Positions 6,489 through 60,065 of a DNA stretch of 64,000 nt are shown here, piece after piece (positions within the stretch are counted from its first letter, which is position 1; each line of letters opens with the position of its first letter). Both the position numbers and the translations under genes were made by a program. Origin of the DNA: a virus; IMG/VR virus record IMGVR_UViG_3300025030_000067, positions 1 to 64,000 of that record. The stretch is one strand, 5' to 3'. A model generated the notes under the pieces. That model was not told the DNA's origin. It saw only the letters and a program-made list of their open reading frames with translations, and did no database searches.

Positions 6489-7541
6489 TTAAAGTAGTGC
6501 CGGGACGCTGCCCTTTGAAAATATGAGCTGATTTAAAATTGACTCTACCGACCGCTTGCCGTCGCAATGCTTCATGTATCCCAGAAAGCTTGCGACTCTG
6601 ACCCGTATCTGCTCCAAGCTCATTAATCCTTCGCGGTAGAGTTCGACGAACTTCTTGAACCGTTTCCTGGCACCTTTCACTGTTCTGATGCGGGGCTTGG
6701 TGTAGTCCGGCCACATGCGGTATCCGCAGAAGTCGATCGGGTGGCATGTGCCGTTGCCGGATTTGAATATTGTGGTTTTGGGATTGAATGTCAGGTGCAG
6801 GCGTTCGGTGATGAAAACTTCAATGTCTGCATGCAGCTTTTTGAGGTAATCTTTGTCTGGATGAACCACAACAAAGTCGTCCATGTATCGGGCGTACATC
6901 TTTACGCCGAGATCGTCCTTGACGTAGTGGTCCAGTGCGTCCAGATAAATGTTGGCGAATAGCTGGCTGGTTAACGCTCCGATTGGTACTCCGCGCTTGT
7001 CGCCGTCGCAGTCTATTATCTGCCCTATCAGCCACAGTGTATCTTTATCGGATATCGTTCTTTTGATCAGTTCGAAGAGCACGTTTCTGTCGATGCTGGG
7101 GAAGTAGCCTTTGATATCTGCTTTCAGCACATAGTAATCGCCCCATTTTTTGTCGGCAGCGACGGCAAACGGTTCGACGCGCATCTTTGCTGCATGGGTT
7201 CCTTTGCCGGTGCGGCAGGCGAACGAATCCGGAATGAATCTCCGCTCGAAAAGCGGCTCTATGATTTGGACAAGGGCGTGGTGGACTACCCGGTCTTTAA
7301 ATGGTGGTGCGTGGATTGTTCTCTTCTTTGGTTCGTAAACGAAGAATTCACGATATCTTGATGGCTTCCATTGCTTCCACGTCAGCTGGTTTAGCGCATT
7401 AATAAGGTTCTCTTCCAGATTTTGCCCATAACGCAGGACCGAACCACGGAAGCGTTTTGCTCGTGAGGCTCCACGGAATGCTTCGTACATGTTCTCGAAG
7501 TTCACTATCTGGTCCCATATGTTGTTGTGGGTTACGGGCAT
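6489..7541 (-). CDS. DGR reverse transcriptase
   Basis: RT motifs FKDRVVHHAL, SFACRTGKGTH, LKADIKGYFPSID, GVPIGALTSQLFAN (DGR-type SQ), RYMDD, DFCGY. 350 aa with no maturase/endonuclease; adjacent TR and Avd. Confidence 0.95.
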   Translation of the reverse strand: MPVTHNNIWDQIVNFENMYEAFRGASRAKRFRGSVLRYGQNLEENLINALNQLTWKQWKPSRYREFFVYEPKKRTIHAPPFKDRVVHHALVQIIEPLFERRFIPDSFACRTGKGTHAAKMRVEPFAVAADKKWGDYYVLKADIKGYFPSIDRNVLFELIKRTISDKDTLWLIGQIIDCDGDKRGVPIGALTSQLFANIYLDALDHYVKDDLGVKMYARYMDDFVVVHPDKDYLKKLHADIEVFITERLHLTFNPKTTIFKSGNGTCHPIDFCGYRMWPDYTKPRIRTVKGARKRFKKFVELYREGLMSLEQIRVRVASFLGYMKHCDGKRSVESILNQLIFSKGSVPALL

Positions 7542-7711
7542 GCTATCCTCGGGGTTCTAAGTAGAAAAGCGGCCATGTTCTCTTGCGATACTTACCGCAA
7601 CTTTTCAGCTAAACATTGTTTGTGCCCACCACTGCGACACAGGAGTAAGGCTCCTTTTGCCTGTGCGCTGAAAGCTCTCCCATGGGAACGCTTTATCTAG
7701 CAACAGGCGAG

Positions 7712-7822
7712 AGCGGGACGGAAGCCGATGTTGCTGTTCACGTTGGAGCGCTGATTGTTCAAGTTCAAGGCAGCCAGGCCAGCATTCGAGGTGTTGTTCC
7801 AATTGCCACCCCGGATCGGCAG
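7712..7822 (-). repeat. DGR template repeat (TR)
   Basis: 111 bp rich in AAC/AAT codons (LPIRGGNWNNTSNAGLAALNLNNQRSNVNSNIGFRPA). Aligns without gaps to 8255-8365 and 59103-59212, with mismatches only at TR adenines. Confidence 0.95.
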
Positions 7823-7830
7823 AGATAGCC

Positions 7831-8166
7831 TTACCCCTTTATTGATTTCACCCACCCACCGATCATCCTGCCAAGTTCGGCAAGATTTCCTCCCCACACT
7901 TCGTACTTCGCGAACGGCAGGAACTGCAGCTCCATCGCAAGGCGCACTTGAGTGCGGAGGATTTCAAGCTCGGTGTCTATTGCATATATCGTTTCTCTTT
8001 TATCTCTGCTCCGGTTCGCCCGGATGATCTGCTCGAGCAATCCGAACATGGTTCTTTTGATATCTTGTGCCAGCGAGAATTTCTCTGACTTCGGGAACTG
8101 CCGCAAGGCGATGTATCCGTACTTGATCATGTCTTCGCATTTTTGTTTGATCTTTAAGTTTTCCAA
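7831..8166 (-). CDS. avd: DGR accessory variability determinant (Avd)
   Basis: 111 aa, QFPKSEKFSLAQDIK...ELGRMIGGW four-helix-bundle signature; lies between target and TR. Confidence 0.9.
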   Translation of the reverse strand: MENLKIKQKCEDMIKYGYIALRQFPKSEKFSLAQDIKRTMFGLLEQIIRANRSRDKRETIYAIDTELEILRTQVRLAMELQFLPFAKYEVWGGNLAELGRMIGGWVKSIKG

Positions 8167-8171
8167 AGCCT

Positions 8172-8254
8172 TGCCCTTCGGGCAGCAGGGGCAGAAACCG
8201 CCCCTGCTAACCCATCAGATACCCAGAGAGTCAGATTGCAGATTATCCTATAAA
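8172..8254 (-). promoter_or_regulatory. DGR IMH region and downstream hairpins of target 1
   Basis: Sequence 3' of VR1 differs from that 3' of TR but is shared with VR2. Hairpins AGCAGGGGC-N7-GCCCCTGCT (8184-8208) and TGCCC-GAA-GGGCA (8172-8184). Confidence 0.75.
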
Positions 8255-9307
8255 AGCGGGACGGAAGCCGAGGATGCTGGCCACGTAGGAGCGCTGATTG
8301 TTCAAGTACAAGGCAGCCAGGCCAGCATTCGAGGTGTTGTTCCAATTGCCACCCCGGAGCGGCAGGGCCTCGAACGATGGCGCGTTGGTGTTGTTGGCGT
8401 AAATCTGCCCGAGTACGCTACCCATGTTGGCTGCTGTGTCGTAAGGGGCAAGGAGTGCCTGCTTCATTTTGAGCGCAACGGCTGGAGTCGTGAGCCCTGT
8501 TGCCACGGTAGAGCTCCATGCTGCTTGGTTCAGTGACGGTCCACGGTTTACATCGGCTACTGCTGTTTCGGTCAGCACCAATGCCCCTGTGGCGGCGTTG
8601 GCTGTACCTGCTGTTGCGGATGCGATACGTGCCAGTGAGTCCGGCCAGCTGGCTTCTGCGAGGGTGTAGTTGTTGTCGGACGGCATCTTGATCACGCCGT
8701 CGACGAGTTTCATGCCATCCTGCCATTCCCATACATTGCCGACGAGATCAGAAATGCCGGTAAAGTCACCGGAGTGTCGCCACGATGCGGGACCGGAACC
8801 GGTAAGGGTGTGAGCGCTGCCGGACGCAGTGCCCGGCGCCAGGCCGTCAGTTCGGCGGCCTGTTTCAAATGGGCTTGCATGAGACTGACCATAATATGTG
8901 TTGCCTCGAACAAGCGGCAGACCGTTCTTGATACACCAGAGCGCGATAGCTGCCCACTCCCAGTTGGTCATCATGTGCCATCCGGCGCCTTTATTGGTGC
9001 AGGCGAGTTTGGCGTTGTCGAAGTTGATAGACACATACGGAGCCATGCCTGGCTGGGAAACCCCAAGACCGTTCATATTGACAGCGTTATATTGCCCAAG
9101 GAATATTTCGTTCTTCTCGACTCCGCCTACTATGAACGCTGGATGGACTCCGGTTCCGAGGTTGGCACTGATGTCCTCGCAACGGAACTTGGGAATAATT
9201 CGCATGTAGTTAGCGAAACCCTGGCTGTCATAAAGCACTGTACACTGGCCGCCTGTGGCCGCTTCAACCGACTGTCTTAACGCATCTTTGGTAATGATTG
9301 TTGGCAT
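8243..9307 (-). CDS. DGR target protein 1 (FGE-sulfatase/C-type-lectin fold, probable receptor-binding protein)
   Basis: WHMMTNWEWAA, GISDLVGNVWEW, RGGNW...GFRP motifs; VR1 at the C-terminus; next to tail fibre genes. Confidence 0.9.
   Translation of the reverse strand: MPTIITKDALRQSVEAATGGQCTVLYDSQGFANYMRIIPKFRCEDISANLGTGVHPAFIVGGVEKNEIFLGQYNAVNMNGLGVSQPGMAPYVSINFDNAKLACTNKGAGWHMMTNWEWAAIALWCIKNGLPLVRGNTYYGQSHASPFETGRRTDGLAPGTASGSAHTLTGSGPASWRHSGDFTGISDLVGNVWEWQDGMKLVDGVIKMPSDNNYTLAEASWPDSLARIASATAGTANAATGALVLTETAVADVNRGPSLNQAAWSSTVATGLTTPAVALKMKQALLAPYDTAANMGSVLGQIYANNTNAPSFEALPLRGGNWNNTSNAGLAALYLNNQRSYVASILGFRPAFIG
8255..8365 (-). repeat. DGR variable repeat VR1
   Basis: 7 mismatches to TR, all at TR adenines (T on the + strand). 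Confidence 0.95.
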
Positions 9308-9331
9308 CGTTCTCTCTCCTTTTTAATTTAA

Positions 9332-10228
9332 CTACAGGTTGTATTTGGTCATTGACCAGCGCACTGCGATATTGTCCGCTGTTCCGTTGGTAACGATGTC
9401 AAAGCCGGTGGTTGTCTTGTTTGTTGCGAATACGTCACCAAGTTGTGTGGCTCCACCGCTGTATCCGGTAACTTCCAGGTCAACGGTGTAATCGTTGTTT
9501 GGCATTGCGAAAGGCAGAACAATGGACACCTTCGGGTATGCTGTGTAGTAGACTGGGTACGCTGCCTGAATAGACGCGGTTTTGGTGAGTGTGCATCCAG
9601 TCAAGTCTTCGGCAGTGTTACTGGCTGGTACGGTTACCCGGTAAAGCACCATTGTGTTTGCCGGCGAAGTGCCGCCCAAGTTGGTCGCTTTCAGGTCTCC
9701 GGTGCTGTCCAGATACAATTCCACATAATCTGTGGCACTACCTGTATTCTGTGCAATTGATGCTGTACTTGTTTGTGCGGATATCGGCACTCTTTGGCCA
9801 TTCACATAGGCCTGTCCTGCCGACAGGTTAACGAGCCGACCGGTGCCGCCTGCAGTCGCGTCGCACCCAGAAACGACTCCGGTATTTCGTAGTATTGCGG
9901 CTCCCTTCTGTGTGCGCTTTGTCAAAAGCGTCTGCAATTCACGGTTTGCGATGCCTGCTTCTGAAATGGCAGCAATCACCATCTGACCGATGTTTGTCTG
10001 CATCTCCGGGTCAAGCAGGTCGTAGGTATCGAGCCGTGCGTCCAGGCTTGCTTTCCCTCCGCGTGCTGCTGCTACTTCGTCAGCAAACTGCTTCAAAAAC
10101 GCTGTGCGGTTTGCAAGCTGTTTTGCCTGCACATTTGCTATACCGCTTGCTCCGCCGACTACCGGGTCAGTTGTTTCGATCTGGTAGATTCCGGAATCGT
10201 ATTGTACGACCTCTGCTACGTTTGCCAT
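9332..10228 (-). CDS. tail fibre/fibre-base protein
   Basis: N-terminal IYQIETTDPVVGG..GIANVQAKQLANRT motif of myovirus tail fibres; C-terminal gp53-like beta domain. Confidence 0.8.
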   Translation of the reverse strand: MANVAEVVQYDSGIYQIETTDPVVGGASGIANVQAKQLANRTAFLKQFADEVAAARGGKASLDARLDTYDLLDPEMQTNIGQMVIAAISEAGIANRELQTLLTKRTQKGAAILRNTGVVSGCDATAGGTGRLVNLSAGQAYVNGQRVPISAQTSTASIAQNTGSATDYVELYLDSTGDLKATNLGGTSPANTMVLYRVTVPASNTAEDLTGCTLTKTASIQAAYPVYYTAYPKVSIVLPFAMPNNDYTVDLEVTGYSGGATQLGDVFATNKTTTGFDIVTNGTADNIAVRWSMTKYNL

Positions 10229-17579: not shown

Positions 17580-18167
17580 GTGATGAAAATGGTTAGTGAT
17601 GTAGTTAAAGTTCTGGAGGGTTTGGCCGTAGAGGACGCTCTGATTATTCTGGACAATGCAAAAAGCGTTGTCCAGAGCGCATCTGGCTTGGCGGTGTCTT
17701 TCGAGTGTAACCGCGAGATGTTCAAAACCAACTATCCCGAACAGGTACTCGCTGCAACTGTCGATTTTGACAAGGAAAGCCTGGAGGCATTCAAAGAACA
17801 AATCCTCAAGGAAGTTGGCGGTATGAAACTGCGCGAAACTCCAAACGGCATGTTATTTGATGCAATGATTAAGCTGGCAAAAGAGCAGAAAACTACTGAT
17901 TCCGCAGAACCCGCCAAGGCAGACGCACCGATAGCGGAGACTCAGCGCGACACGAAATGCATTGTGGCACCTAAATATGGGACGCAAGAATACCGTGACC
18001 GCGAGAATTACAAAAATTCTGTTGTGGTTGAGGTGTGCAACCTACTGTCGCAACGGAGTCTATCTGTTGCTGATGGGACGAGAGTTCTTGAGGTTGCTAT
18101 TGCTCATCTTGTTTTTTCGCCTGTTGCGCCTTTAGATCGGTTAAATGATGAATATAAGCCGCTCTGA
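17580..18167 (+). CDS. hypothetical protein containing a copy of part of the phage's own portal protein
   Basis: GGAGG RBS. Residues NREMFKTNYPEQVL...KLRETPNGMLFDAMI match the portal (51666-53399). Confidence 0.75.
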   Translation: MMKMVSDVVKVLEGLAVEDALIILDNAKSVVQSASGLAVSFECNREMFKTNYPEQVLAATVDFDKESLEAFKEQILKEVGGMKLRETPNGMLFDAMIKLAKEQKTTDSAEPAKADAPIAETQRDTKCIVAPKYGTQEYRDRENYKNSVVVEVCNLLSQRSLSVADGTRVLEVAIAHLVFSPVAPLDRLNDEYKPL

Positions 18168-18371
18168 TTTTTTGCCTGGCATCTTCGGTTGAGTGTGGTT
18201 TTGGTGATATTAAACCAAGCTCAACAGCCGTTAATTGTGCCGCTACCAGCATGATTGTCTTGTCCATCGTTCTCTCCTTGTGGTGTCTGTTTTGATTGGC
18301 GTCGGCACGATACCACGAGAGAACGGTGGACATCATTTTTTTCTTGCAATTCCTTTCCATGGTATCGTACA

Positions 18372-18590
18372 GTCGCTCACATGAGGCATCGCAACCTCTG
18401 TGAGCGGCCCACGCTCCCGACAGTACGTGTTTTTTTGTGCCTGCAATCTGAAATCTGAACATCTGTATAGTACGTCGGGGAGTGGGCTAATAAAATACCA
18501 GTAATGGAAATAACCCAGCCGTCTCACAGCGGTGCGATCCCCCGGCCTACTCTTAGCCGAGTACGCTTAAGTCAGCAAACTGTGAGGTAA
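18372..18590 (+). ncRNA. candidate C4-like antisense/structured leader of the antirepressor operon
   Basis: Two stems (18372-18408, 18408-18486) and repeated CTCACA(G)/(C)TGTGAG elements, the last overlapping the RBS of the BRO gene. Confidence 0.4.
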
Positions 18591-18594
18591 CACC

Positions 18595-19326
18595 ATGCAA
18601 AAACCCGCCTGTAGTCCCGTCCCGGCAGTATTCAGTTTTGAATCCCACGATGTACGAACAATTGTAGTTGGCGAAGAGGTCTGGTTTGTGGCCAGGGACG
18701 TTGCCGCTGTATTGGGCTATGCCAAACCGGAAAAAGCCATTTCATCACATTGTAAGCATGCCAAATCGTTAGCCTCCCCCGAATTGGGGGGGCAGGTTCC
18801 AGCCGGTTGGCCTCGGAATATGATGATCATCCCCGAGCGTGACGTCTACCGCCTGATTATGCGCTCCACTCTTCCCGCCGCCGAAAAGTTTGAAGACTGG
18901 ATTGTCTCCGAGGTCATCCCTTCCATCCGCAAGCACGGCCACTACGGCCAGCCGGTTGTTCTCCCTGCCGATCCGATGCAGATTCTCAAAGTTACTTATG
19001 ACGCCCTGGTGCAGGTGAATACCCGAGTGGACGAGGTACAGGAAACTGTTACCCGTTTGCTCGACACCGTCCGGCTCCAGCAATGGCAATGTTACGAACT
19101 GAAAGCCGCCGTCACGCAGAAGGCGCAGGAGTTCCGTGATACCTATAATTGCACTTATGCGTTGCTCTTTCCCGCCGTCTGGGGCTTTGTCAAAAAACAC
19201 TTCCGGGTTGCTACTTATTCCGCCATTCCGACTGTCCGTTTCGACGAGGCGCTTGCGCTTGTCAAGGCTATCACTTTTGGCGACATGCCCGACTATGTGC
19301 GCGAGAGCGCAGGGGGTGCCAAATGA
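18595..19326 (+). CDS. BRO-N family phage antirepressor (ORF6C-like C-terminus)
   Basis: WFVARDVAAVLGY, IPERDVYRLIMRS.LP.AEKFEDWI.SEVIPSIRKHG; C-terminal F.VATYSAIP..RFDEA. Confidence 0.9.
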   Translation: MQKPACSPVPAVFSFESHDVRTIVVGEEVWFVARDVAAVLGYAKPEKAISSHCKHAKSLASPELGGQVPAGWPRNMMIIPERDVYRLIMRSTLPAAEKFEDWIVSEVIPSIRKHGHYGQPVVLPADPMQILKVTYDALVQVNTRVDEVQETVTRLLDTVRLQQWQCYELKAAVTQKAQEFRDTYNCTYALLFPAVWGFVKKHFRVATYSAIPTVRFDEALALVKAITFGDMPDYVRESAGGAK

Positions 19327-20357
19327 GAATCGAACCCACCCTCAACGAAAAAGTTTACTATCGCACTCCGGAGATGAACCGTAAAAAGAAAGGCTTCATC
19401 GTCGCCGGCAGTATCGAAACCGGCTTTGAAATTAAACCGGTGCGTGAAGGCTATACGCTCAACCCACCGAACATTAACGGAGTTTTCCGCGACAGCATCT
19501 GGACGGCAGCAGAACATGCCGCTGGCAGATTACCGAAAGGCACAGGACGGGGCGTGGCCGCAAAAGAAAGCAAGCGCAGGGGGCAGGTTGGCATGGAGCG
19601 CATCGGCGTGTCTGAGGCTGAAATCATGCGACACCCTGGCATTGTGAGTATCATGGGAAAAATATTGTCAGGTCTGGCAGCACGGAACGGATTTAATCCG
19701 CATTTCGTGCTTGCCGATGGCGTTATGCACAACGACGATCTTGCCGCGAATGAATTGTACAGCGAGTACGTCACGGCAGCTCTCGGGGCTCTGCGCACGT
19801 CCGGCAACAATGCCAGTGATGCCGACATCGAGCAGTTCAAAGCGTACTTGTCCGGTGCATCCCTTGAAAGCAACATCGCGCTTACGATTGCCCGTACCGG
19901 CAAGACCGCAGCCATGCGGCACCTGATCTCGGATAATGACCGGCTGAAAGCGTCCGTTTCCTACGATACCCAGGGTGAAGACGACTACGAGACCGGCATG
20001 CGAGCGATTGCGGCCAAGGTTGCCGTCAATCCAGAACGTGGCTCTGGCGCTGCCAAGCAGGAAGCCCTGACGTTCGGCATTGCGGAACAGCTGGAAGCTC
20101 TGGACGACACGGCGGCAGCGGTCATCATTAAAATGAAGTTCGGCCTGGAGCAGTTCGAGCATGCCTACAAGGAACAGGACATCGCAGCCGCTCTCAACCG
20201 GGCGAAGGTTCCGGCTCCGAATGGCTTGTGGGATGCGGTGAAGGTGAAGATCAAGATGTTGGCTGCGCTTGCGATTCTGGCGCATACCCGAGGGATGCAG
20301 AACCTGCGCGACTTCATAAGCGGTTGCGACTACTCTTTTGTTGGAGGTGCAGCATGA
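19323..20357 (+). CDS. sigma-70-like protein; paralog of the N-terminal domain of the 1504-aa polyprotein
   Basis: ATG 19323 overlaps the BRO stop (ATGA). Region-4-like LEALDD..AVIIKMKFGL...YKEQDIAAALN...AALAIL; co-linear with residues ~70-400 of 37742-42256. Confidence 0.6.
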   Translation: MRIEPTLNEKVYYRTPEMNRKKKGFIVAGSIETGFEIKPVREGYTLNPPNINGVFRDSIWTAAEHAAGRLPKGTGRGVAAKESKRRGQVGMERIGVSEAEIMRHPGIVSIMGKILSGLAARNGFNPHFVLADGVMHNDDLAANELYSEYVTAALGALRTSGNNASDADIEQFKAYLSGASLESNIALTIARTGKTAAMRHLISDNDRLKASVSYDTQGEDDYETGMRAIAAKVAVNPERGSGAAKQEALTFGIAEQLEALDDTAAAVIIKMKFGLEQFEHAYKEQDIAAALNRAKVPAPNGLWDAVKVKIKMLAALAILAHTRGMQNLRDFISGCDYSFVGGAA

Positions 20358-20533
20358 GCCCGAATAAAAAAGCTACCATGATGCGTGACCTGGATGTCGC
20401 CCTGTCCCTTTTTGATGTTCTTGAAAACCTGCTGGAGAATAATGCCGGTGTGACTGATCTGCACTATCTGGCTTCTCTGGCCGGGGAGGGTAAGCGTAAG
20501 CTCAATGGTGTTGTCGATGTCTTGGCCGGGTGA
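20354..20533 (+). CDS. small hypothetical protein
   Basis: GGAGG RBS; ATGA overlap with the previous gene; MSPNKKATMM... Confidence 0.55.
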   Translation: MSPNKKATMMRDLDVALSLFDVLENLLENNAGVTDLHYLASLAGEGKRKLNGVVDVLAG

Positions 20534-20718
20534 TCATTCTGTTTTACTGTCTTTTACCTGTTGAAGTGGAGGTGTGCCATGCTTTGTATTCGCGTTTCCG
20601 TGAAGGGTTCTTTTGTTGGTCTGGTTCATGATTCTGATCGCGCCATAATTCGCAGTCTGGTCAAGCGATTCGGTCTTGAATCACTGGCTCTTGTTCCGGT
20701 GGTTGTACTGTGATATAC

Positions 20719-20751
20719 GAAAGGGGTGTCCGTTAGAGGGCACCCCTTTTT
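20719..20751 (+). terminator. intrinsic terminator
   Basis: AAAGGGGTGTC-loop-GGCACCCCTTTTT. Confidence 0.65.
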
Positions 20752-20783
20752 CTGTTGGAGGGATCTTGCAATTTGGAGGCTTT

Positions 20784-21083
20784 ATGCGTTCGTTTCTTGT
20801 TGTGCTGGACCAGCCAGGGGACAATCTTTCTTATGCACAGGTACTGGTGGAGCTTGCTGACAATGAAGGTAAACAAGAAGGAATTGAACAGCTTGCAAAA
20901 AATGTCTACATGATTCCAGAAGGTAGGTTTTTGTGGTTCGTTTCTGCCATTGCCGTGCGTTTGGAGCCATTCTCTCGCCGCGCAGGACAGCCCCATGGTC
21001 AAACGTGTGCAGCTTACGGCTATAAGTGTCTACTTTTTGATGAAGCCCTTCAATGGCTTCGCTTTGACGGTTCCCAACAATAA
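20784..21083 (+). CDS. hypothetical protein
   Basis: GGAGG RBS then MRSFLVVLDQ... Confidence 0.5.
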   Translation: MRSFLVVLDQPGDNLSYAQVLVELADNEGKQEGIEQLAKNVYMIPEGRFLWFVSAIAVRLEPFSRRAGQPHGQTCAAYGYKCLLFDEALQWLRFDGSQQ

Positions 21084-21217
21084 CCGGTGTCATGCTTTGG
21101 GTTATACCGTTTCCGTACCATCTTAAATCTTCGGATGCTGACATGTGTTCCTCCTTTCGGACAGTTTTACGGACAGTATCACACCTTGTGGCGTATATCA
21201 AATAAATGGAGGTCGTT

Positions 21218-21943
21218 ATGAAACTGTTTCTCGTTGTTGTTATGTTGCTGCTCCCCGTGGCAGGGTGGGGGGAAGGTGTTAGAGGTGTACAGTCAAAAAA
21301 AACACGCACGGTTGCGACAAAAAACAAAACTGATGGTTTTCAGGGTATCCTCTTTGGCACCAAAGAAGCCGAAGTGACGGATCTGTTAAAAAAGAAGTAT
21401 CCTGGTGCTTATAATGATGCCGATAATAGAGTTTTTTTAGGTGATCCCAGATCTGTTTTTCTGGGTGATTTAAAATCACAACACGGCATTGTTTTAAATG
21501 AGAATTACAATGAGTATGGGTATAAATATGTGCCAACTATTTATCAAGTGGAATTCATTTTTAAAGACAATAAGTTTTCTGCTTATCAGATTTACAAGCG
21601 CTTAAATATGGCTGGAATTAACGAACAATCAATCTACTTAACCCAAATACAAAAAATGATGTTTGACAAATATGGCTATGCTCAATACCAAACTAATTTA
21701 AGCAATTTATATGATATCGTGGCACACACTACACGCTTAGAATGGAAAAGTTATATAATTAACGCTTGGACTCCAAAAACAAACGCCAATGTTTTTGTCG
21801 GTACTCTTGTGTCGTCAGCCGATAACAATATGTACTTATTTGCGAGAGTTTGTATTGCAAAAGACGACCCTGTTGCCGCAAGATTTTCGGGTCAATACAA
21901 GTCCGAAAAAGACAGGACTGGAAAAGAGTTTCCTAATTTTTAG
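21218..21943 (+). CDS. secreted/periplasmic hypothetical protein, AT-rich moron
   Basis: Signal peptide MKLFLVVVMLLLPVAGWG; visibly lower GC than the flanks; GGAGG RBS. Confidence 0.7.
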   Translation: MKLFLVVVMLLLPVAGWGEGVRGVQSKKTRTVATKNKTDGFQGILFGTKEAEVTDLLKKKYPGAYNDADNRVFLGDPRSVFLGDLKSQHGIVLNENYNEYGYKYVPTIYQVEFIFKDNKFSAYQIYKRLNMAGINEQSIYLTQIQKMMFDKYGYAQYQTNLSNLYDIVAHTTRLEWKSYIINAWTPKTNANVFVGTLVSSADNNMYLFARVCIAKDDPVAARFSGQYKSEKDRTGKEFPNF

Positions 21944-32040: not shown

Positions 32041-33480
32041 TTATGGCGCAGTGTATGTACCGCAGTTTTTGTAGATCATCACTCGTTCAGGAGCTTTGAT
32101 CACGGAAACGATGTACAGCAGCAGCATGAACGGGAAGGTTGTGCCTACCTGTGGCAGCGGCATTTTGATAAGCGGTGTCATCTGAGCGATGGCGATGTCG
32201 CGTGCGTCCGGCTTGATCACCAGTGCGATGCCGTCAGAAGGTTTACCGGCTGCATCCACAGTGCTCCATTCGCCCTTGTCAACGAAGGTCAGGTCGCCGG
32301 AAGCGGTCTGCGCAACCTTGGCAATCCATTTCGCGTCAGAACCGTTTGCCAGCTTACCGCGATAGATGCGGTATCCAGTAGCGCCGGCCAGGCGGGTAAC
32401 TACGATGGTCACCTTTGTGGTGGCATCAGGTACTGCAATGGCACTGGTAATGGTCCCGAGGGATTCGCCAGTGTCGTTGAACGCGGCCACTGTGTAGTAA
32501 TATGTGGCGGCGAGGTGCTGACCGGCAGCGTCGTCGGCTGCTGCTGGCTGGGTTGTGATTGCTGGTGCGGCAGGAACGCCAGCCGGTGCGGCAGCCAAAG
32601 GTGCGGCAGCTTCGACTTCCTGGAGCAGAATGGAGTAGTCGAAATTGAACCGACCGAACTGCGTATCGTATCCGTCAAGGTTTTGTCCCAAGGAATACGT
32701 CGGCTGCTGTCCGCCGTCCTTGTTGAAGCGAACCATGTTGCGGGATGCGAACTGCTGGTTCAATCCTGCGGTTACGTGTGCCGACTGCAGCACGTTGTAC
32801 CCGTTGACACTGGCCTGCTTGCCGGTGGTTACCAGGGACTGGGCGGCAACGTCCAGTTCATTGAAAGTCAGGGGAGCGCCCTTCATATCAATTACGTTCG
32901 CCGAGTTGGCAGCGGTCAGTGCAGCCAAGAGCCCGTCGAAGTTTACTTCTTCGCCGTTCTCGTCCTTGATTGCAGACTGGCCGAACACCAATTCACGCTC
33001 TACTTTTTCGAGAAGCTCCAGCGTGCGGTCACGGTTCTCGCGGACGGTGGGGTCTTCGAAAGCGCCGCCATTCTGTCCAGTGATCAGCATCTGGTGAGTG
33101 ATCCCGCCGAGTACGCCGAGGAACTTGTTGTAGATACCTTTACGCTCAAACGTAGAGGTTCCGCCCTTTGGTGCCCCGCCCTGACGGAAGCCAGCGCCAC
33201 CGCTGCGGTTGGAACCGAAGCCTTTGTGGACGTTGTACTCGTAGTAAGGCTGCGCACTGGGAACCTTGGGGAGCATGTTGAACAGCTTGAAGTGCTGCTC
33301 GGTGATGAGTACTTCTGTCATCACTGCATCCAGGTTTTCCAGCATGAGTGGTCCGGACTGAATGCCTCCGGGACCGCTGTTGGTGGTTGCGAGTGCTTTG
33401 CGCAGGTCGTCGACGATACCGTCACCGGTCTGGTTGTAGCCACCGCTTTTCAACATCTGATCGTAACTTTGTACTTCCAT
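32041..33480 (-). CDS. major capsid protein (SPO1/Twort-like)
   Basis: LRKAL...PLMLENLD N-terminus, E..LVFG...FDGL, inserted Ig-like domain (YYYTVAAFN..GES, GYRIYR), PLIKMPL; follows protease and scaffold. Confidence 0.9.
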   Translation of the reverse strand: MEVQSYDQMLKSGGYNQTGDGIVDDLRKALATTNSGPGGIQSGPLMLENLDAVMTEVLITEQHFKLFNMLPKVPSAQPYYEYNVHKGFGSNRSGGAGFRQGGAPKGGTSTFERKGIYNKFLGVLGGITHQMLITGQNGGAFEDPTVRENRDRTLELLEKVERELVFGQSAIKDENGEEVNFDGLLAALTAANSANVIDMKGAPLTFNELDVAAQSLVTTGKQASVNGYNVLQSAHVTAGLNQQFASRNMVRFNKDGGQQPTYSLGQNLDGYDTQFGRFNFDYSILLQEVEAAAPLAAAPAGVPAAPAITTQPAAADDAAGQHLAATYYYTVAAFNDTGESLGTITSAIAVPDATTKVTIVVTRLAGATGYRIYRGKLANGSDAKWIAKVAQTASGDLTFVDKGEWSTVDAAGKPSDGIALVIKPDARDIAIAQMTPLIKMPLPQVGTTFPFMLLLYIVSVIKAPERVMIYKNCGTYTAP

Positions 33481-51665: not shown

Positions 51666-53399
51666 TCAGTCGAGTGTGATCTTGAGGAACTTCGTCTCGG
51701 GCTGTGACTTCCGCATTGACTTGTAATACTGGTCACTGTCGCCGCCCTGTTGATCGTCTCCCTGGTCTTCGTCCTGATCCGGTTCTTCTTCTGCCTGTTG
51801 CTGCTGTGCGAATGTGTTCAGGTAGTTCGGGATCGGCACGTCTGCAGGGTAATTCCATGGGTTCTTGTCGTACTTCTCTTTGTTCTCGTCGCCCTCCTGG
51901 AGCTTGCTGTACTGCTCTGGCGGCAGGTAGAATCCGATGGGGGCTCCGCCTTCTTCCATGCGACATTCGTTCTTGGTGATCCATTTGGAGACTCGGCTGG
52001 TGCGGATATCGACCGCCTGTTTCTCGTCTTCCGGGTTCAGGCCAACAACTATCAGCTTGAGGTCGTCATATCTAGGTTTAATGAGTGCGTCGGTGAGCCA
52101 TTCCGCCATGTCGGTGATGGAAGGGATGAGTCCGTGTTCTTTCGAGAACTCAATTTCTCCGGAGGCATTACCGGCAAAGATGCTACCGCCGCCTGCGCCA
52201 CTGTCGGTCTCCATGTTCAGTGTGCTGGGGTGGGCTCCGTAGGCCGAGCATTTGAACATGACCATCATCCTGATCATCTGGTCGAACAGCATGTCCTTTG
52301 GAGACTCGCGGAGCTTCACGCTTTCGATCTTGAAGTTCTCCATGTCGCCGGCAGGGATTACCGGCAGGCGCCAGTTGTTGCCGACTCCACCAGCCTCGCC
52401 AAGTATCTGCTGCTTGAACGCGGCCAAGCCTTCTTTGTCGTAGTCGCCGGAGACCGTCAGCACCTGCTCGGGATAGTTGGTCTTGAACATCTCGCGGTTG
52501 TATGTGAATGCCATGAGCAGGCTGGTGGTGATGTCCAGTGACTCTTCCAAGCGGGATGTACCGTATCCCCATCGGTTGAGCCGGTCGCTCGGGTTACTGA
52601 TGTGGACGCTGATTTCGTCGTCGGTGAATGCAGCTGTGATCATACCGTCGATCATCTGGACATAGCTGGCACGGGCGAGGTCAAACCCGGTGGAGTACGA
52701 CATCTTGTTTATCGTGTCTCGGCCTACCTTGCCGTTGCTCTCGTTCTTTTGAGCCCATGCCCGAATTGACTCATCCACGTTCTTGATCGTCTCTCCTGGC
52801 AGCCAGTGGAATGCTGCGTAGCCTTGGCCGTCTCGGCGTTTGTATCGGAGGATGCATTTGCGGTCGATGATCAGCTCCGTGCGGGTCAGAACGCCGACGA
52901 GGTCTTTCAATCGGGTATGTGGCCGGACGTTGTGCGGGTAGAGGTAGATGTGTTCGGTGGGCGTCGGGTCGCTGATGAATTTCTCCATCTCGTGGCAGCG
53001 TTCTTTATCCTGTCTGGTGACCTTGTAGTCGGGATCATCTGCGCGGTCGTGAACAACTCTGAATCCAATCTCCTTGTTCTTGCCCTCATTGGCCTTCTGC
53101 CAGATGCGTTTCTGCTGGTCGGTCCGGGCTCTGATCAGGATGCGGTCGAGGGTGGATTTTTCTGCGGCTTCGTACAGGATGGAAAACTGCGGGGTGCCTA
53201 TTGGCTTTTCTCGGGCTCCCATTACTATTGAGTTGTTTAATGCGAATTTGGAGAAGAAAGACGCTTTATTTTCGTCTCTTCGCATTTTATTAGCTTCTGA
53301 TTTTATCAGGTCGTCCGCTGAATGTTTTGGCACCAATAATCCTGATGAAAGTTGCACTGACTCTTCAAACACTCTGTTCAGGAATAATTTGTTATGCAT
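51666..53399 (-). CDS. portal protein
   Basis: 577 aa; NP...YGTSRLE, NREMF..NYP, DMLF, AYGAHP..L, T.NECR motifs; acidic tail; head module position. Confidence 0.88.
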   Translation of the reverse strand: MHNKLFLNRVFEESVQLSSGLLVPKHSADDLIKSEANKMRRDENKASFFSKFALNNSIVMGAREKPIGTPQFSILYEAAEKSTLDRILIRARTDQQKRIWQKANEGKNKEIGFRVVHDRADDPDYKVTRQDKERCHEMEKFISDPTPTEHIYLYPHNVRPHTRLKDLVGVLTRTELIIDRKCILRYKRRDGQGYAAFHWLPGETIKNVDESIRAWAQKNESNGKVGRDTINKMSYSTGFDLARASYVQMIDGMITAAFTDDEISVHISNPSDRLNRWGYGTSRLEESLDITTSLLMAFTYNREMFKTNYPEQVLTVSGDYDKEGLAAFKQQILGEAGGVGNNWRLPVIPAGDMENFKIESVKLRESPKDMLFDQMIRMMVMFKCSAYGAHPSTLNMETDSGAGGGSIFAGNASGEIEFSKEHGLIPSITDMAEWLTDALIKPRYDDLKLIVVGLNPEDEKQAVDIRTSRVSKWITKNECRMEEGGAPIGFYLPPEQYSKLQEGDENKEKYDKNPWNYPADVPIPNYLNTFAQQQQAEEEPDQDEDQGDDQQGGDSDQYYKSMRKSQPETKFLKITLD

Positions 53400-53868
53400 T
53401 GGCCGTCTCCTGATAATTCTTCCAAGACTGGTTGTTTAATATTTTAGCGGTCTGAGCGATTGATAGTCCGTATCTCTGGCCGATTGATTTATATGTTCCG
53501 GTTTTCCCGTTTCGTCGCATTTCCTGCACTTGCTTGAGTGTTACCTTTGCTTCGTTGTGACGTTCTCCGTCTGGTTGACGCCGCTTCTTGGTCCTGTCTG
53601 CTACGTTTTCTATGTTTGTTCCGACGAACAGGTGGTCGGGTCGGATGCATCTGGGGTTGTCGCATTTATGCAGGACTTGCAATCCTTCTGGTATCGGGCC
53701 GTTGTGCATCTCCCAAGAGAATCGGTGCGCTTTCCCCATTTTCCCGTGGTGGTGAAAGAACCCGTATCCGTCTTTATCTCTTGCTGCCTGCCACTCCCAG
53801 CACTCTTTGCTCTTGTCTACTTTCTCCCAGAAGTTTTCTTCCGGCGTTCTGACTGGCCATCTTGGCAT
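53392..53868 (-). CDS. HNH endonuclease
   Basis: CWEW...GYG..KAHRFSW...VLHKCDNPRCIRPDHLFVGT..EN. Confidence 0.9.
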   Translation of the reverse strand: MPRWPVRTPEENFWEKVDKSKECWEWQAARDKDGYGFFHHHGKMGKAHRFSWEMHNGPIPEGLQVLHKCDNPRCIRPDHLFVGTNIENVADRTKKRRQPDGERHNEAKVTLKQVQEMRRNGKTGTYKSIGQRYGLSIAQTAKILNNQSWKNYQETANA

Positions 53869-53986
53869 TTCACATCTCCGTGTGCGTCCCGATTATTCTC
53901 TGTGCCCAGGACGGTCGGAGTTCCGTCTTTTCTCCCGCTAAAGATAGGGCACAGCATGTCTTGTTAGACAATACTGTGCCCTAATT

Positions 53987-54011
53987 TGTAGCGTATATCA
54001 AACTGTTTGCC
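53987..54011 (-). promoter_or_regulatory. 13-bp box with GGCAAA/TTGATA upstream of HNH-portal
   Basis: Minus strand GGCAAA-cagt-TTGATA-tacgctaca; -10 element not clear. Confidence 0.5.
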
Positions 54012-54016
54012 GCTGG

Positions 54017-54259
54017 TTAGCCTTTAACCATATACAGAGTTTTACCTCTTATAATTGCAAGAAGTTCTGCATCTGTCTTCTCTTGGACCGGTCCATATAC
54101 CGTCTCTGCAACACCGTGAATCCAATTAAGGAGCTTCTCTGCATCCGCGATCACGTCATCGCTATTTATCCCTCGTCCATGGCTGTCCGCACTTTCCAAT
54201 ATTTCTTTACTCATCTTCAAACACGTTAATCTTAATTTTCGTTGGTTCATTGGTTTCAT
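54017..54259 (-). CDS. hypothetical protein
   Basis: 80 aa; AAGGGAG RBS. Confidence 0.55.
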   Translation of the reverse strand: MKPMNQRKLRLTCLKMSKEILESADSHGRGINSDDVIADAEKLLNWIHGVAETVYGPVQEKTDAELLAIIRGKTLYMVKG

Positions 54260-54279
54260 CTCCCTTTTGGGTTTAATGT

Positions 54280-54396
54280 TTGGGCGCTTTGTAGATCTGG
54301 TTTTCTAATTATGCTTGGCACGCTTCCTTGTATTGGTGTTCTTATGTGGAGTGGCTCGCTACGTCAACGTGGTTTTCTTTTGCACCTTGGCTATGC
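54280..54396 (-). repeat. TIGR-like array, downstream block (3 x 36-bp units)
   Basis: Minus strand (A/T)GCCA-N9-AGAA(A/C)ACCA-N9-AGCG x3, starting in the TAG stop of the Tas gene. Confidence 0.85.
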
Positions 54397-55398
54397 TGCT
54401 TGCTTCTCCCCGCCATGGACGTATCCCAGCTTCGCCTCGTGGTAGGGTAGCGACACCGGCAGACCCTCAATGGTCCTCCAAGCTGTGTAGAGGTCGATCA
54501 GGAACATCTTGACCATGTAGCGCATCGCGGCGTTGTGTCGGTGCCCCTTCTCGCTCACGGTTTTCTCTTTGCCCTTGTCGTTGGTTTCGGTTCGGTCCTT
54601 CCAGTTGGTGTGATTTTCCAGACGGTTCTTGTAGTCGTCATATATCGTCCGGTATTTGCTCTCACCGGCTCTCAGGAAGCTGCTGGCGAGCACTCCCATC
54701 AGTTTTGTTTTGAGGAATGGGTTGAATGTGATTCCGTTCCTGATCGCTGAGTTACCTTCTTTGTCGATATACGCTACAGTCTGGAGATGCTCTTTCCTTC
54801 GTGATCGGCCTTTGCCATCATCTGCGCAGTCGAGTCCTGCATACTTCCAGATGCTGCTCGGGTGTCTGGACTTGGTGATGTCGATCTCGCTGATGATCAC
54901 TCCTGCCATGGCTGGGCCTATGCCTCTGACGCCTTCGAGGAATTCGACGTATATCGGGTAATCTTCGAGTATCTTGCCGAGCATCCGGAAGTGCCGGTTC
55001 TCTTGGGATTCGAGGTCTTTGTATTGCGATATCAGGCAGAGCTCCGTGTAGTCACTGATCACTGGATTTCCCTTGAATTTCTTTTTGCTGGGCAGGCCGT
55101 CTGCCGTCAGTAGTGAGTAGTGTTTATCGAGCAGTTGGGACACAAGCCCTGCGATCTTCTTTTCTTCTTTTTCCGTCTGTTCCAGCTCCGCGACTGCTCC
55201 GGTGGTGACCAGTTTGTTGGCATTCCGTATCCGTGCCAGCAGTTGCTGCGATTCGGCGTCGAGTCCTTCTTCTGGTTCGCTTGGTGCCTGGCCGAGTTTG
55301 GCCTTGAAGTTGCCGACTATCCTGTTTCCGGTTTGGATGCGGAGCTTCTGGATGTCGTAGCTCCCTCTTACGATGGTTTTCAGATTTCCTGCTGACAT
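54391..55398 (-). CDS. TasA-like Nop-domain RNA-guided protein (IS110-related, no nuclease domain)
   Basis: QKLRIQTGNR coiled coil; FLEGVRGIGPAMAGVIISEID...SSIWKYAGL; FNPFLKTKL; HNAAMRYMVKMFLIDLYTAWR. No RuvC/DEDD or HNH motifs; flanked by 36-bp arrays; AAGGAGG RBS. Confidence 0.85.
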   Translation of the reverse strand: MSAGNLKTIVRGSYDIQKLRIQTGNRIVGNFKAKLGQAPSEPEEGLDAESQQLLARIRNANKLVTTGAVAELEQTEKEEKKIAGLVSQLLDKHYSLLTADGLPSKKKFKGNPVISDYTELCLISQYKDLESQENRHFRMLGKILEDYPIYVEFLEGVRGIGPAMAGVIISEIDITKSRHPSSIWKYAGLDCADDGKGRSRRKEHLQTVAYIDKEGNSAIRNGITFNPFLKTKLMGVLASSFLRAGESKYRTIYDDYKNRLENHTNWKDRTETNDKGKEKTVSEKGHRHNAAMRYMVKMFLIDLYTAWRTIEGLPVSLPYHEAKLGYVHGGEKQAA

Positions 55399-55421
55399 GA
55401 TGCCTCCTTGGTTGGTTTGGT

Positions 55422-55826
55422 GGTTCCTCTCTTTAGTAGTGGTTTTCTTAAACCGAATGGCTCGCTATTGTCTGTTGGTTTTCTTAATGTTAATGACTCG
55501 CTCTACGTATCTGTGTTTCTTTTGATGAATGGCTCGCTTCGTTATGCTGGTTTTATCTTCTTTATCGGCTCGCTCACTACATTTGGGTTTCTTTTCTGGA
55601 ATGACTCGCTTCGGTCGTTTGGGTTTCTCCCATTTCTTGGCACGCTCAATATTGCTGGGTATCTCTTTTTTTCTGGCTCACTTCGTCAGGATGGGTTTCT
55701 TCTGCGTTTTGGTTCGCTCTTTCATCATGGTGTTATTACAAGTGCTGGCTCGCTGTCTTCACTTGGGTTTCTTTTTGAATTTGGCTCGCTATGAAAAGAT
55801 GGTTTCCTTTCTCATTATGGCTTCTC
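55422..55826 (-). repeat. TIGR-like array, upstream block (11 x 36-bp units)
   Basis: Strict 18/36-bp period. Alternating 9-nt repeats AGCGAGCCA and AGAAA(C/A)CCA (minus strand) are separated by unique 9-nt spacers; loop repeats start at + coordinates 55440, 55476 ... 55800. Confidence 0.92.
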
Positions 55827-55861
55827 TTTCTATAAGTCTCCGTCACAGAATGATGCCGATG

Positions 55862-57716: not shown

Positions 57717-57981
57717 TGGTGACCTGCTCCTTTTTCTTTATTCTCCAGCGTCTGCCGGCCACGTTTGCCAGTTGCGGCAGCTCTGCCAGTTCCCCGTGCG
57801 GTCCAGTCACGTCATTCGCTTCTCTAGCTGCATCCCATTCCTCATATTCGCCTCTTACAGCGTCGGCTTGTTCCTGCTCTGTCAATGCTGACCATCTGCC
57901 GTGTTTTGCCCTGCCTCGGTTATATTCCTTGGCGACCTCTTGAAAAAATCCTGTCAGCGGGTGGTTGGTGATGTCGGGCAT
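57697..57981 (-). CDS. hypothetical protein, MazG-like helical pattern
   Basis: GEYEEW...AELPQLANVA (ExxE...ExxQ). Confidence 0.45.
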   Translation of the reverse strand: MPDITNHPLTGFFQEVAKEYNRGRAKHGRWSALTEQEQADAVRGEYEEWDAAREANDVTGPHGELAELPQLANVAGRRWRIKKKEQVTNAERNR

Positions 57982-58348
57982 GCGGCTTCTCCGGTACTTC
58001 TTGTTGATATTGATATTTCGATGTTGGTGCGACAGTTCGGGCAGATCACGATGGCTGCCAGCTTGGTTTCGTCGGGTCCGCAGACCACGTCCTTATGGGT
58101 GAGGTCGGCGTTGATTGCTTTGTTGCAGTTCGGGCATCCCGTGAACAGTGTCATAGTCGGTCCTTTCCGTATCTGATGCCGTTGCTCTTTTTGCATGTGA
58201 TGCGGTGGTAGTATGTTTTCCCGTTAACCTCGATCAGCACATGCTCCTTGCACTTGTCGCATTTTTCCCAACGGCGACCGGTGTTGCCTGCGGTCTTCTT
58301 GAAGTCTGGCACCTGGACTTCTTTGGGTGGCGTGGTGGCTTCTTTCAC
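57954..58348 (-). other. two small Cys-containing hypothetical genes (57954-~58153, 58151-58348)
   Basis: CPNC..CPNC and CDKC..H..C zinc-ribbon patterns; overlapping start/stop codons. Confidence 0.5.
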
Positions 58349-58782
58349 TGCTTCCTCCCGTTTGCTTCGAGTAGTGCCGCCTTACACATGGCTTCTGGAA
58401 ATGTTGAGGCGACCACTCGGTATCGTTTGCTGTCAATATCTGTGGCGTGTTGTATGACGACGGTCACGTCCTCGGGAGTCACGAATATATCAACATCGTT
58501 GCCATGCGACTTGATCGCTTCAAGGACTTGCCATGCCTGGCTGTTGTTGGCCGATGGTCGCCAGTCATCTACGTGCGCTGGGCACGAAGTCATGGCCTTG
58601 TTCTTTTCCTCTGCTTGGCAGTAGCAGGCGGTATTCCGAAAGTGTACTGCCCATCCCATGATCTTCTCGGCCACCAGCTTATTCAGGTCTTCGTCTGGCT
58701 CCATCTGGTTGACGTATTGTGGGTATTCGTCGGTGGTCATGGTTTCTTTGGTCTCCGATAGCTGCCAAGCCTGTCCTCGCAT
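58345..58782 (-). CDS. phage ABA-sandwich-like protein
   Basis: LNKLVAEKIMGW...WRPS.N..QAWQV...PEAMCKAAL. Confidence 0.6.
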   Translation of the reverse strand: MRGQAWQLSETKETMTTDEYPQYVNQMEPDEDLNKLVAEKIMGWAVHFRNTACYCQAEEKNKAMTSCPAHVDDWRPSANNSQAWQVLEAIKSHGNDVDIFVTPEDVTVVIQHATDIDSKRYRVVASTFPEAMCKAALLEANGRKQ

Positions 58783-59036
58783 TGGCCGATTATTGATTTC
58801 AGGGTGCGCCGGTATTCCTGGCGTCCTCGTGTTGATTCTTTGCTTCGTGCCAGCCTTATGACGATGGTGTACATCTGGTCAGTGTCCTCGATGGTTTCCA
58901 TCCCTTGGCCGTGTCGATTTGGTGCTTTTTTCATTGGTTGCCTTGTAGCGGAATGTGTCTATTTACTCGACGCTTGTATCACATTATCTGTGGTATACGC
59001 TACAGCTTTTTAGATATGCGCTACACTATAGGCTCA

Positions 59037-59102
59037 CAGGGGCTTTCGCCCCTGCTAACCCATCAGATAACCAGAGAGTCAGATTGCAGATTATCCTATA
59101 AA
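59037..59102 (-). promoter_or_regulatory. DGR IMH region and GAAA-loop hairpin of target 2
   Basis: ~55 nt identical (1 mismatch) to the region 3' of VR1; hairpin CAGGGGC-GAAA-GCCCCTG at 59037-59054. Confidence 0.8.
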
Positions 59103-60065
59103 AGCGGGACGGAAGCCGACGTAGCTGTACACGTTGGAGCGCTGATTGATCAAGCTCAAGGCAGCCAGGCCAGCATTCGAGGAGTAGCTCCAACCGCCAC
59201 CCCGGAGCGGCATGGCCTCGAAGTTTTCGGTGTTATCGGCCCATACGTGGCCTGGTATGCCGAGGCTGCCGTCGCAGGGACACAGCAGCGCCTGGTAGAT
59301 GGATGCCGGGAGGGGTTGATCTGCCTTGGCGGTGATTTCGGCGAATGGCGTGCTCAACCAGTCTCTGTCGGTGATCTTGTTGGAGATCTCAATGTCGCTC
59401 TTTCCGTTGATGACTGCACCGGTTTCCGCCCATGCTGATTCTTTGGCTGTGAATTCGTTGTTTCTCGGCATGATGATCTTGCCACTGGCCAGCTTCAGTC
59501 CGTCCACCCATTCCCAGACGTTGCCCACCAGATCGGCAATCCCGTGCATTGTGCCATCGTGGCGCCATGTATCCGGTCCTGATCCGGTCAGGGTCTTGCC
59601 GCCGTCGCCCGATGGCATGCCGGACTCTTCTTCATTCTTGTGCGACTTGCCATAATCGGTGTTGCCGTGCGCGTCTCCGTATCCGTTTTTTGCCATCCAG
59701 AGTGCGACTGCTGCCCACTCCCAGTTGGTGAGCATGTGGAAGCCTGGGCCAGCGGCTATGCAGGCCGCTCGTGCGTTGTCGAAGTTGATGCCGGTTTTAG
59801 GGGTCTGGTAGGGGAGTGAGATCGCTTGGCCGTTGCTGATGATGGCCTGGTAGGTGCCGATGTGGATCTCGCTCTTTTCGACGCCGTTGACGATGAAGGC
59901 CGGGTGCAGTCCAGTTCCCATGCTTTCGCTGATGTCCTCGCACTTGAACGCTGGTATCACGTTGAAGTATGACGGGTAGCCCTTGGTGGTCCGCCTGACG
60001 GTTTGCTTGCCCTCTGATGCTCTTTCTACCTGTTCCCTCAGTGAATCCTTGATGATGATGTTCAT
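59091..60065 (-). CDS. DGR target protein 2 (remote paralog of 8243-9307)
   Basis: Same motifs (GLHPAFIVNGVEK, HMLTNWEWAA, DLVGNVWEW, RGG.W...GFRPAFIG); AGGAGG RBS; VR2 at the C-terminus. Confidence 0.9.
   Translation of the reverse strand: MNIIIKDSLREQVERASEGKQTVRRTTKGYPSYFNVIPAFKCEDISESMGTGLHPAFIVNGVEKSEIHIGTYQAIISNGQAISLPYQTPKTGINFDNARAACIAAGPGFHMLTNWEWAAVALWMAKNGYGDAHGNTDYGKSHKNEEESGMPSGDGGKTLTGSGPDTWRHDGTMHGIADLVGNVWEWVDGLKLASGKIIMPRNNEFTAKESAWAETGAVINGKSDIEISNKITDRDWLSTPFAEITAKADQPLPASIYQALLCPCDGSLGIPGHVWADNTENFEAMPLRGGGWSYSSNAGLAALSLINQRSNVYSYVGFRPAFIG
59103..59212 (-). repeat. DGR variable repeat VR2
   Basis: 11 mismatches to TR over 110 bp, all at TR adenines. Confidence 0.95.

Follow-up and report, generated by a model that had tools for sequence, protein, structure and literature searches.

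Can a single diversity-generating retroelement (DGR) keep rewriting two target genes that lie tens of kilobases apart, or is the distant gene a copy that was written once and then left alone? The question is raised by IMG/VR virus record IMGVR_UViG_3300025030_000067 (G000; 90,534 nt, classed linear, CheckV completeness 100%), positions 1-64,000 of which are called the window here. The window holds one cassette of a reverse transcriptase (RT) gene, a template repeat (TR) and an avd gene, together with two paralogous target genes that each end in a variable repeat (VR). Target 1, with VR1, adjoins the cassette, and target 2, with VR2, lies in an accessory block between the terminase and portal genes. 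All of the genes involved are on the minus strand, and mismatches are scored on the coding strand. As an explanation of the whole, one DGR that serves both co-oriented targets by RT/Avd mutagenic copying has a probability of roughly 0.85.

VR1 (8255-8365, minus strand) aligns without gaps to TR 7712-7822 at an offset of +543, and its mismatches are at TR adenines in 7/7 cases. VR2 (59103-59212, minus strand) aligns without gaps to TR 7712-7821 at an offset of +51391, with 11/11 mismatches at TR adenines, and the edge position 7822/59213 has one additional C>A difference between TR and VR2. With adenine at 25 of the 111 TR positions, mismatches confined to adenines would arise by chance with P = 1.4e-5 for VR1 and 1.0e-8 for VR2. 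Three mutated positions are common to VR1 and VR2, with different letters at two of the three, and both VRs end 9 nt before the stop codon. A BLAST search over the whole 90,534-nt record finds only three copies of the repeat, namely TR, VR1 and VR2. A preliminary description of this DNA had reported both gapless alignments with their 7 and 11 adenine mismatches, mostly different substitutions in the two VRs, and the amino-acid string encoded by each; the alignments and counts were re-derived, and the strings are correct.

Rewriting of both repeats is visible between related phages. A homology search with target 2 matched 122 stretches, 111 of which encode relatives, and 80 were kept. Four of them, L004-L007, carry target-2 orthologues (92-97% identity) in the same terminase-to-portal context. 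L004 and L005, which come from different metagenomes, have 0/965 differences in the target-2 gene and its 3' region outside the VR, and inside VR2 they differ at 18 TR-adenine positions and one other. The VR of L005 contains an N and that of L007 a gap. The preliminary description had treated an invariant VR2 beside a varying VR1 as the mark of a frozen duplicate; VR2 is not invariant, as the 18 adenine sites show. VR1 was compared among the relatives L085, L087 and L088, where the TR and its flanks are identical at 151/151 positions. None of the non-adenine positions of VR1 and 11-17 of its 25 adenine positions differ, with 15-22% difference in the rest of the gene. Among these sequences VR1 clearly turns over.

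A second lineage keeps the same arrangement. L008 and L084 are parts of one 79.9-kb record, G001 (91% complete), in which TR, VR1 and VR2 each occur exactly once and on the same strand, so that the two-target layout is retained. The G001 TR has 13 differences from the window TR, nine of them non-adenine, and all nine are present in both G001 VRs. Both VRs co-evolve with the TR in the two lineages. G001 VR1 has eight adenine mismatches and no non-adenine mismatch to its own TR. Since VR1 differs from VR2 in both complete genomes, the two repeats are independent draws. The earlier claim of a single Avd-TR-RT cassette with two paralogous targets holds, since the record has one RT and one TR, VR2 varies between relatives, and G001 keeps the layout. 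At three positions of G001 (L008:7664-7690 vs L084:11580) VR2 retains an A that is now G in the resident TR and VR1. This pattern suggests that the G001 TR changed from A to G after the last rewriting of VR2.

The RT gene (6489-7541, minus strand, 350 aa) matches Pfam RVT_1 (E 3.2e-18) and phrog_1423 'Reverse transcriptase' (E 1.8e-130), and its product does not reach the curated cut-offs set for the RTs of group II introns, retrons, Drt and Abi systems. Neither the window nor the other 26.5 kb of the 90.5-kb record yielded another RT. The Avd accessory protein (7831-8166, minus strand, 111 aa) scores 123.5 bits against a cut-off of 80 with NCBIfam NF033474 'diversity-generating retroelement protein Avd', and also matches Pfam bAvd PF22296 (E 8.8e-33). 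The TR (7712-7822, minus strand, 111 nt) has 25 adenines, 10 AAY codons and 15 A-bearing codons. No stop codon can be reached from it by adenine mutation, and about 6e14 protein variants are possible.

Between the TR and the RT gene is a structured spacer RNA (7564-7713, minus strand) that matches the full Rfam RT-14 model (RF02921, positions 1-144) with 53.9 bits against a gathering score of 48.1 (E 4.8e-6). RT motifs have been placed beside RT genes and are possibly part of DGRs (PMC5737381), and the priming spacer of Bordetella phage BPP-1 occupies the same place as the RT-14 RNA, between TR and RT gene (PMC12875486). By analogy, the RT-14 RNA may act as the priming spacer. The locus as a whole combines an RT, an Avd, an adenine-only TR/VR pair, a target-side element with a hairpin, a structured RNA and natural variation restricted to the VR, which are the features by which a DGR is recognized.

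Next after the RT gene, at window 6108-6476, comes a gene for a DUF4376 protein (Pfam E 4.4e-12) that is kept in relatives. In the relative L086 (10001-11522), this gene comes straight after target 1, and the entire avd-TR-RT cassette (record 6499-8176) is lacking, the breakpoint lying just past the hairpin. VR1 of L086 differs from the window TR at 11 adenines and the edge position only. The cassette either was lost recently from L086 or is located elsewhere in that phage.

The sequence that follows the VRs is common to both targets and has no counterpart beside the TR. The VR1 3' flank (8209-8254, minus strand), at the position of the initiation of mutagenic homing (IMH) element, contains four TCTG repeats spaced 7-9 nt apart and the stop codon of target 1, and the VR2 3' flank (59056-59102, minus strand) likewise contains the stop codon and TCTG repeats. 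Segments 8200-8254 and 59048-59102 are identical at 54/55 positions and absent after the TR, in agreement with the preliminary description of a near-identical segment of about 55 nt. A GC hairpin, re-derived here as well, lies 3' of each VR. In the DNA fold centroid, the one after VR1 (within 8173-8208, minus strand) pairs CAGGGGC at 8186-8192 with GCCCCTG at 8200-8206 around a 7-nt coding-strand loop, GGTTTCT, and the one after VR2 (59036-59055, minus strand) has the same arms at 59037-59054 around the coding-strand loop GAAA. The predicted fold also has a second small hairpin at 8173-8183, just upstream of the avd start. Phage DGR targets have been described with GC stems of 7-10 bp and GRNA loops, 4-34 bp from the VR, and in BPP-1 the IMH and hairpin are sufficient to direct the DGR to a foreign gene (Guo et al., PMC3240598). 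The VR2 hairpin, with its GC stem and GAAA loop, fits the GRNA consensus of that study. Flank and hairpin together may well be a recognition label.

The extent of this common stretch bears on how it is maintained. Identity between the two target genes begins about 12 nt before the TR homology, and the 84 nt upstream of the VR are identical at only 31/84 positions. At the other end, identity stops sharply in the hairpin region in the window and after the hairpin region in G001, where 81 consecutive nucleotides are identical between the two targets, through both hairpins. All of the approximately nine flank differences between the lineages are common to both copies within each genome. Since the TR cannot supply the flank, its homogeneity needs either gene conversion between the sites or joint co-evolution with whatever reads it.

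TCTG words are also common in this position elsewhere. The survey covered 33 hand-picked loci in which the match reaches the C-terminus, with obvious near-duplicates dropped. In the 60 nt that follow the VR, TCTG occurs 11 times as often as in the background (64 in 1980 nt vs 1439 in 501,857 nt on the same strand), although the loci are related and the counts are not independent. At least two TCTG words are present in 20/33 loci and at least three in 15/33, and the usual spacing is 7 nt (22 cases) or 8 nt (9 cases). No description of the TCTG repeats was found in a limited literature search. Some loci without TCTG repeats carry CTTG or CCTG repeats.

Target 1 (8243-9307, minus strand, 354 aa; phrog_2889, E 7e-113) and target 2 (59091-60065, minus strand, 324 aa; PDB 5VF4, E 5e-67) are variable proteins resembling TaqVP, a monomeric single-domain C-type-lectin protein of the subtype named for formylglycine-generating enzyme (FGE) (PMC6328139). 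They share 47% identity over 355 aligned columns and their full lengths. This bears out the earlier view of target 2 as a full-length paralogue of target 1 located between terminase (62983 onward) and portal (51666-53399). The structure model of target 2 has a predicted local distance difference test score (pLDDT) of 93.4, and matches 5VF4 with a template modelling (TM) score of 0.90 and 39% identity; the next matches are Mtd and TvpA. Target 1 was placed in the TaqVP-type group by its 47% identity to target 2 and the same PHROG. Both targets are full-length single-domain homologues of TaqVP, as judged from the model for target 2 and by sequence comparison for target 1.

Outside the VR, dN/dS is 0.05 for target 2 (vs L004 and L006) and 0.03-0.16 for target 1, and by this measure both scaffolds are under purifying selection. 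A maximum-likelihood tree, built quickly from 41 proteins, gives the target-1 type clade a support of 98 in the Shimodaira-Hasegawa-like approximate likelihood ratio test (SH-aLRT) and the target-2 type clade 99, and makes the two sisters with 88. Since the target-1 and target-2 clades are sisters across both lineages, the duplication predates the lineage split. In the more distant relative L009 (7211-10873), avd-TR-RT is preceded by a tandem pair of target-2 type genes (7211-8173 and 8252-9229), both of which have a VR-like end.

In the proposed mechanism, a complex of RT and Avd would copy the TR-spacer RNA into cDNA, placing random bases opposite template adenines. The cDNA would then replace the final stretch of about 111 nt in both targets, at the adjacent VR1 and at the distant VR2. 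Both sites would be recognized by the label that is common to the two VRs and not in the TR, consisting of the GC-rich VR end, the stretch of about 45 nt over the stop codon in which TCTG recurs at intervals of 7-8 nt, and the GC hairpin. The product would be single-domain TaqVP-type C-type-lectin binders with 15 variable codons, ten of them AAY, and a potential of about 6e14 variants. The part played by RT and Avd in this phage is assigned by homology to BPP-1.

Several observations weigh against this reading, or against a virion role for target 2. Contigs of runs X1, X2, X4 and X6 were mapped to 58700-60500 as a within-sample check, and no within-sample heterogeneity was seen; the X1 and X2 contigs hold one VR2 variant, identical to the window, at a depth equal to that of the flanks. 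X1 and X2 may be the source samples. Contigs break at the shared flank (59090-59100), and the additional letters in the VR2 mapping are cross-mapped TR/VR1 pieces, with loose ends at 59103 that read into the TR flank. Because contigs drop rare variants, the single VR2 variant in X1 and X2 limits high-frequency variation only. In G001, VR2 has three non-adenine mismatches to its own TR beside ten adenine mismatches, and since VR1 has none, VR2 appears to have been rewritten less recently there. The 7-nt loop of the VR1 hairpin does not fit the 4-nt GRNA consensus (PMC3240598). A paralogue scan found no fibre paralogue near target 2 or elsewhere in the genome, and a fibre homologue is present in 0/7 target-2 type loci. 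A scan of 58000-63000 found no promoter-like site near target 2; terminator-like sites in the same interval are no commoner than in shuffles.

The adjacent target is the easier one to place. Target 1 is preceded by a gene for a putative tail fibre (9332-10228, minus strand, 298 aa), whose N-terminus matches tail-fibre PHROGs (phrog_3100, E 5e-16). The fibre model has long helices at 31-105 followed by a beta domain (mean pLDDT 75), and a fold search gave weak matches, at best E 0.013, to cyanophage fibre and lactococcal phage receptor-binding protein chains. Fibre homologues lie upstream of TaqVP-like targets in 20/93 loci, and 16 of these cover the C-terminal half. Target 1, read as the receptor-binding tip in the preliminary description, may therefore be such a tip on the fibre encoded at 9332-10228, for which gene order gives circumstantial support.

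Target 2 is co-oriented with the late genes and has a strong ribosome-binding site (AAAGGAGG). Its place in the late minus-strand gene series points to a late-made, virion-associated second binder, to which we would give somewhat less than an even chance. The accessory block around it is a gene set that varies between relatives. An HNH endonuclease (53392-53868) and an IS110-like transposase (54391-55398) lie in a block (53392-55853) that is absent from L004 and L006, and from this distribution the block looks like a recent insertion between the target-2 block and the portal gene. A 444-aa gene of the accessory block is absent from L005 and L007. The neighbours of target 2, a 77-aa gene upstream and a 65-aa gene downstream, are conserved only within the close lineage, and a partner-gene search gave no functional family match for the 77-aa, 65-aa or 444-aa genes.

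The preliminary description had offered a second, interchangeable tip and a non-structural binder as alternatives for target 2, and such a block could also house the latter. Target 2 may be non-structural, a soluble hypervariable binder made in infection, for example against host or competitor molecules or released at lysis. The surrounding block is moron-rich, with a nucleoside deoxyribosyltransferase-like gene besides the endonuclease and transposase, its content varies between relatives, and no fibre paralogue is nearby. TaqVP is monomeric and single-domain, with no separate docking domain (PMC6328139), and the second target of Faecalibacterium phage FP_Lagaffe is found among early and replication genes. 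However, target 2 shares its strand and gene series with the structural genes, its ribosome-binding site is strong, it lacks a promoter-like site of its own, and target 1, its full-length paralogue, adjoins the fibre. In a few cultured phages, members of the family also carry the name 'antireceptor' or 'virion structural protein', although these are depositors' names and not tests. The soluble binder is a possibility that we regard as somewhat less likely than a virion-associated one. A more detailed proposal is unlikely in its entirety, namely that the two binders evolve independently, with target 2 a late virion component from the packaging/head-proximal block (such as an alternative fibre tip or a head/neck adhesin), that the TCTG and hairpin label is kept identical by gene conversion, with RT/Avd recognition and both targets co-evolving, and that the TCTG-repeat element is a conserved module for target recognition in VHML/TaqVP-type DGRs.

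Returning to how one DGR could supply both repeats, the diversity of VR2 might be second-hand, acquired by gene conversion from VR1 through the approximately 170 nt common to both and not directly from TR cDNA. The 3' flank is homogenized within each genome, including the lineage-specific changes, and since the TR is without this flank, recombination or conversion between the two sites does happen. As the source of the VR2 variants themselves it is improbable, since VR1 and VR2 differ at most mutated positions in both complete genomes, and VR2 has its own complete IMH-side flank and canonical hairpin, of the kind that suffices in BPP-1 (PMC3240598). A frozen duplicate, written once and no longer serviced, would agree with the single variant in the X1/X2 contigs and the three non-adenine mismatches in G001, but this reading is rejected as highly improbable because L004 and L005 differ at 18 adenine sites of VR2 and at 0/965 positions elsewhere, and further because 0/85 non-adenine positions of the window VR2 (7712-7821) differ from the TR despite 47% protein identity of the paralogues, both cis elements, the canonical GAAA loop among them, are intact, and VR2 follows the lineage-specific TR in G001.

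The DGR of BPP-1 (mtd-VR/avd/TR/brt) resembles the one serving targets 1 and 2 in the order of target VR, avd, TR, spacer and RT, and in adenine-only differences between TR and VR. It also has a GC hairpin after the VR (CGGGGCC GAAA GGCCCCG), with the same GAAA loop as at VR2, and its IMH region has YCTG-type words (TCTG...CCTG...TCTTG) before the GAAA hairpin. Unlike the present DGR it has one target, and Mtd is a three-domain obligate trimer (PMC6328139), in contrast to the single-domain TaqVP-type targets. The BPP-1 IMH is nearly identical to the IMH* in its TR (PMC12875486), whereas here the flank past CCCGCT is unrelated to the sequence after the TR. TaqVP itself, from a Thermus aquaticus prophage DGR (5VF4), shares full-length homology with target 2 and a C-terminal VR, but belongs to a single-target cassette (PMC6328139).

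Second targets away from the cassette are known in other phages. A tblastn search of target 2 against 50,697 cultured-phage records matched 55, all at <60% identity. Two matching places each are present in FP_Lagaffe (two accessions, one phage), Dulem virus 37 and Clostridium phage Saumur. FP_Lagaffe (NC_047911.1), a myovirus, encodes a target (gp26), Avd (gp27), RT (gp28) and a second FGE-type paralogue, gp40. Its TR has 13/13 mismatches at A against the gp26 VR and 11/11 at A against the gp40 VR; the main text of its description gives one target gene (PMC5883640). The second target of FP_Lagaffe lies about 9.5 kb from the TR, among early and replication genes, with the VR about 350 nt before the gene end, whereas target 2 is 39-51 kb away, in the part of the late gene series flanked by terminase and portal, and has its VR at the very C-terminus. 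The gut myophages nd4 and nd12 (Baykov et al. 2023, PMC10743442) have one DGR with two VR-bearing C-type-lectin targets as well, but these differ in topology (a tentaclin with immunoglobulin domains vs another protein) and are not full-length paralogues, and the role of the second is called unclear by the authors.

A survey of phage-associated DGRs reports numerous non-adjacent targets, almost all of them no more than 50 kb from the RT, in arrangements where one target is adjacent and one is not (Wu et al. 2018, PMC5758913). This is exactly the layout seen here, and the survey's account of it comes without population evidence for activity of the distant copy or an analysis of flank homogenization. 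In Roux et al. 2021 (PMC8144416), a term search turned up no passage that deals with the distances of multiple targets. Since non-adjacent second targets in phage DGRs are already published, the two-target layout is not new, and it does not overturn the current understanding of these elements. What goes beyond the known layout is the population evidence for the distant target, its conserved terminase-portal position, and the homogenized TCTG-repeat and hairpin label.

The locus would thus be a clear case, found in nature, of a single DGR that reaches across tens of kilobases in trans to serve two paralogous targets, both of them rewritten according to comparisons between populations. The distant copy is old, has been kept in two lineages and evolves under purifying selection, so the second hypervariable binder is maintained and not incidental. 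The label is homogenized between the copies even though it cannot come from the template, which points to gene conversion or else to its co-evolving with the machinery that recognizes it. The two natural labels differ in nothing but the hairpin loop (GAAA vs 7-nt) and are a ready-made test of loop dependence, and the pair also suits a test of the position-dependent editing rates proposed for multi-target DGRs (PMC12875486).

The phage carrying the DGR is, judging by its gene content, a 90.5-kb temperate phage with a contractile tail. It is temperate because it encodes a CI-like repressor and an integrase (record 73334-75261). The structural genes run along the minus strand from the small terminase (record 65021-65527) and large terminase (62983-65049) through the accessory block to the portal and a protease, followed by the major capsid protein (32041-33480), the sheath (25866-27629) and a transglycosylase-bearing tail protein (21970-24585), and then by the baseplate genes (10.7-17.5 kb), the fibre-like gene (9332-10228), target 1, avd, TR and the RT gene. 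The large terminase gene (minus strand, phrog_675, full ORF of 688 aa) lies at 62983-64000 in the window and continues to 65049 in the record, at the start of the late minus-strand gene series. The portal protein gene (51666-53399, minus strand; Pfam Phage_portal, phrog_12) is the lower boundary of the accessory block with target 2.

The contig of the relative L088 runs from record position 183 directly into position 89570. Since this joins the record ends, a circular or permuted map has two arcs between TR and VR2, one of 51 kb and the other of about 39 kb. The separation of 51 kb in the preliminary description is thus right on the record, but not on such a map, where the shorter arc applies.

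A plus-strand island (window 17580-21943) lies inside the minus-strand tail module and carries partial paralogues of head genes. Its ORF at 17580-18167 has 47% identity over 88 aa to portal residues 291-378, and the ORF at 19149-20357 has 67% identity over 330 aa to residues 67-396 of a 1504-aa protein (37742-42256). Part of this island is also found in the relative L085. The 1504-aa head-module protein has a ddrB-like ParB domain (E 8.8e-35) and a phosphoheptose-isomerase-like stretch, and is possibly an ejected or internal virion protein.

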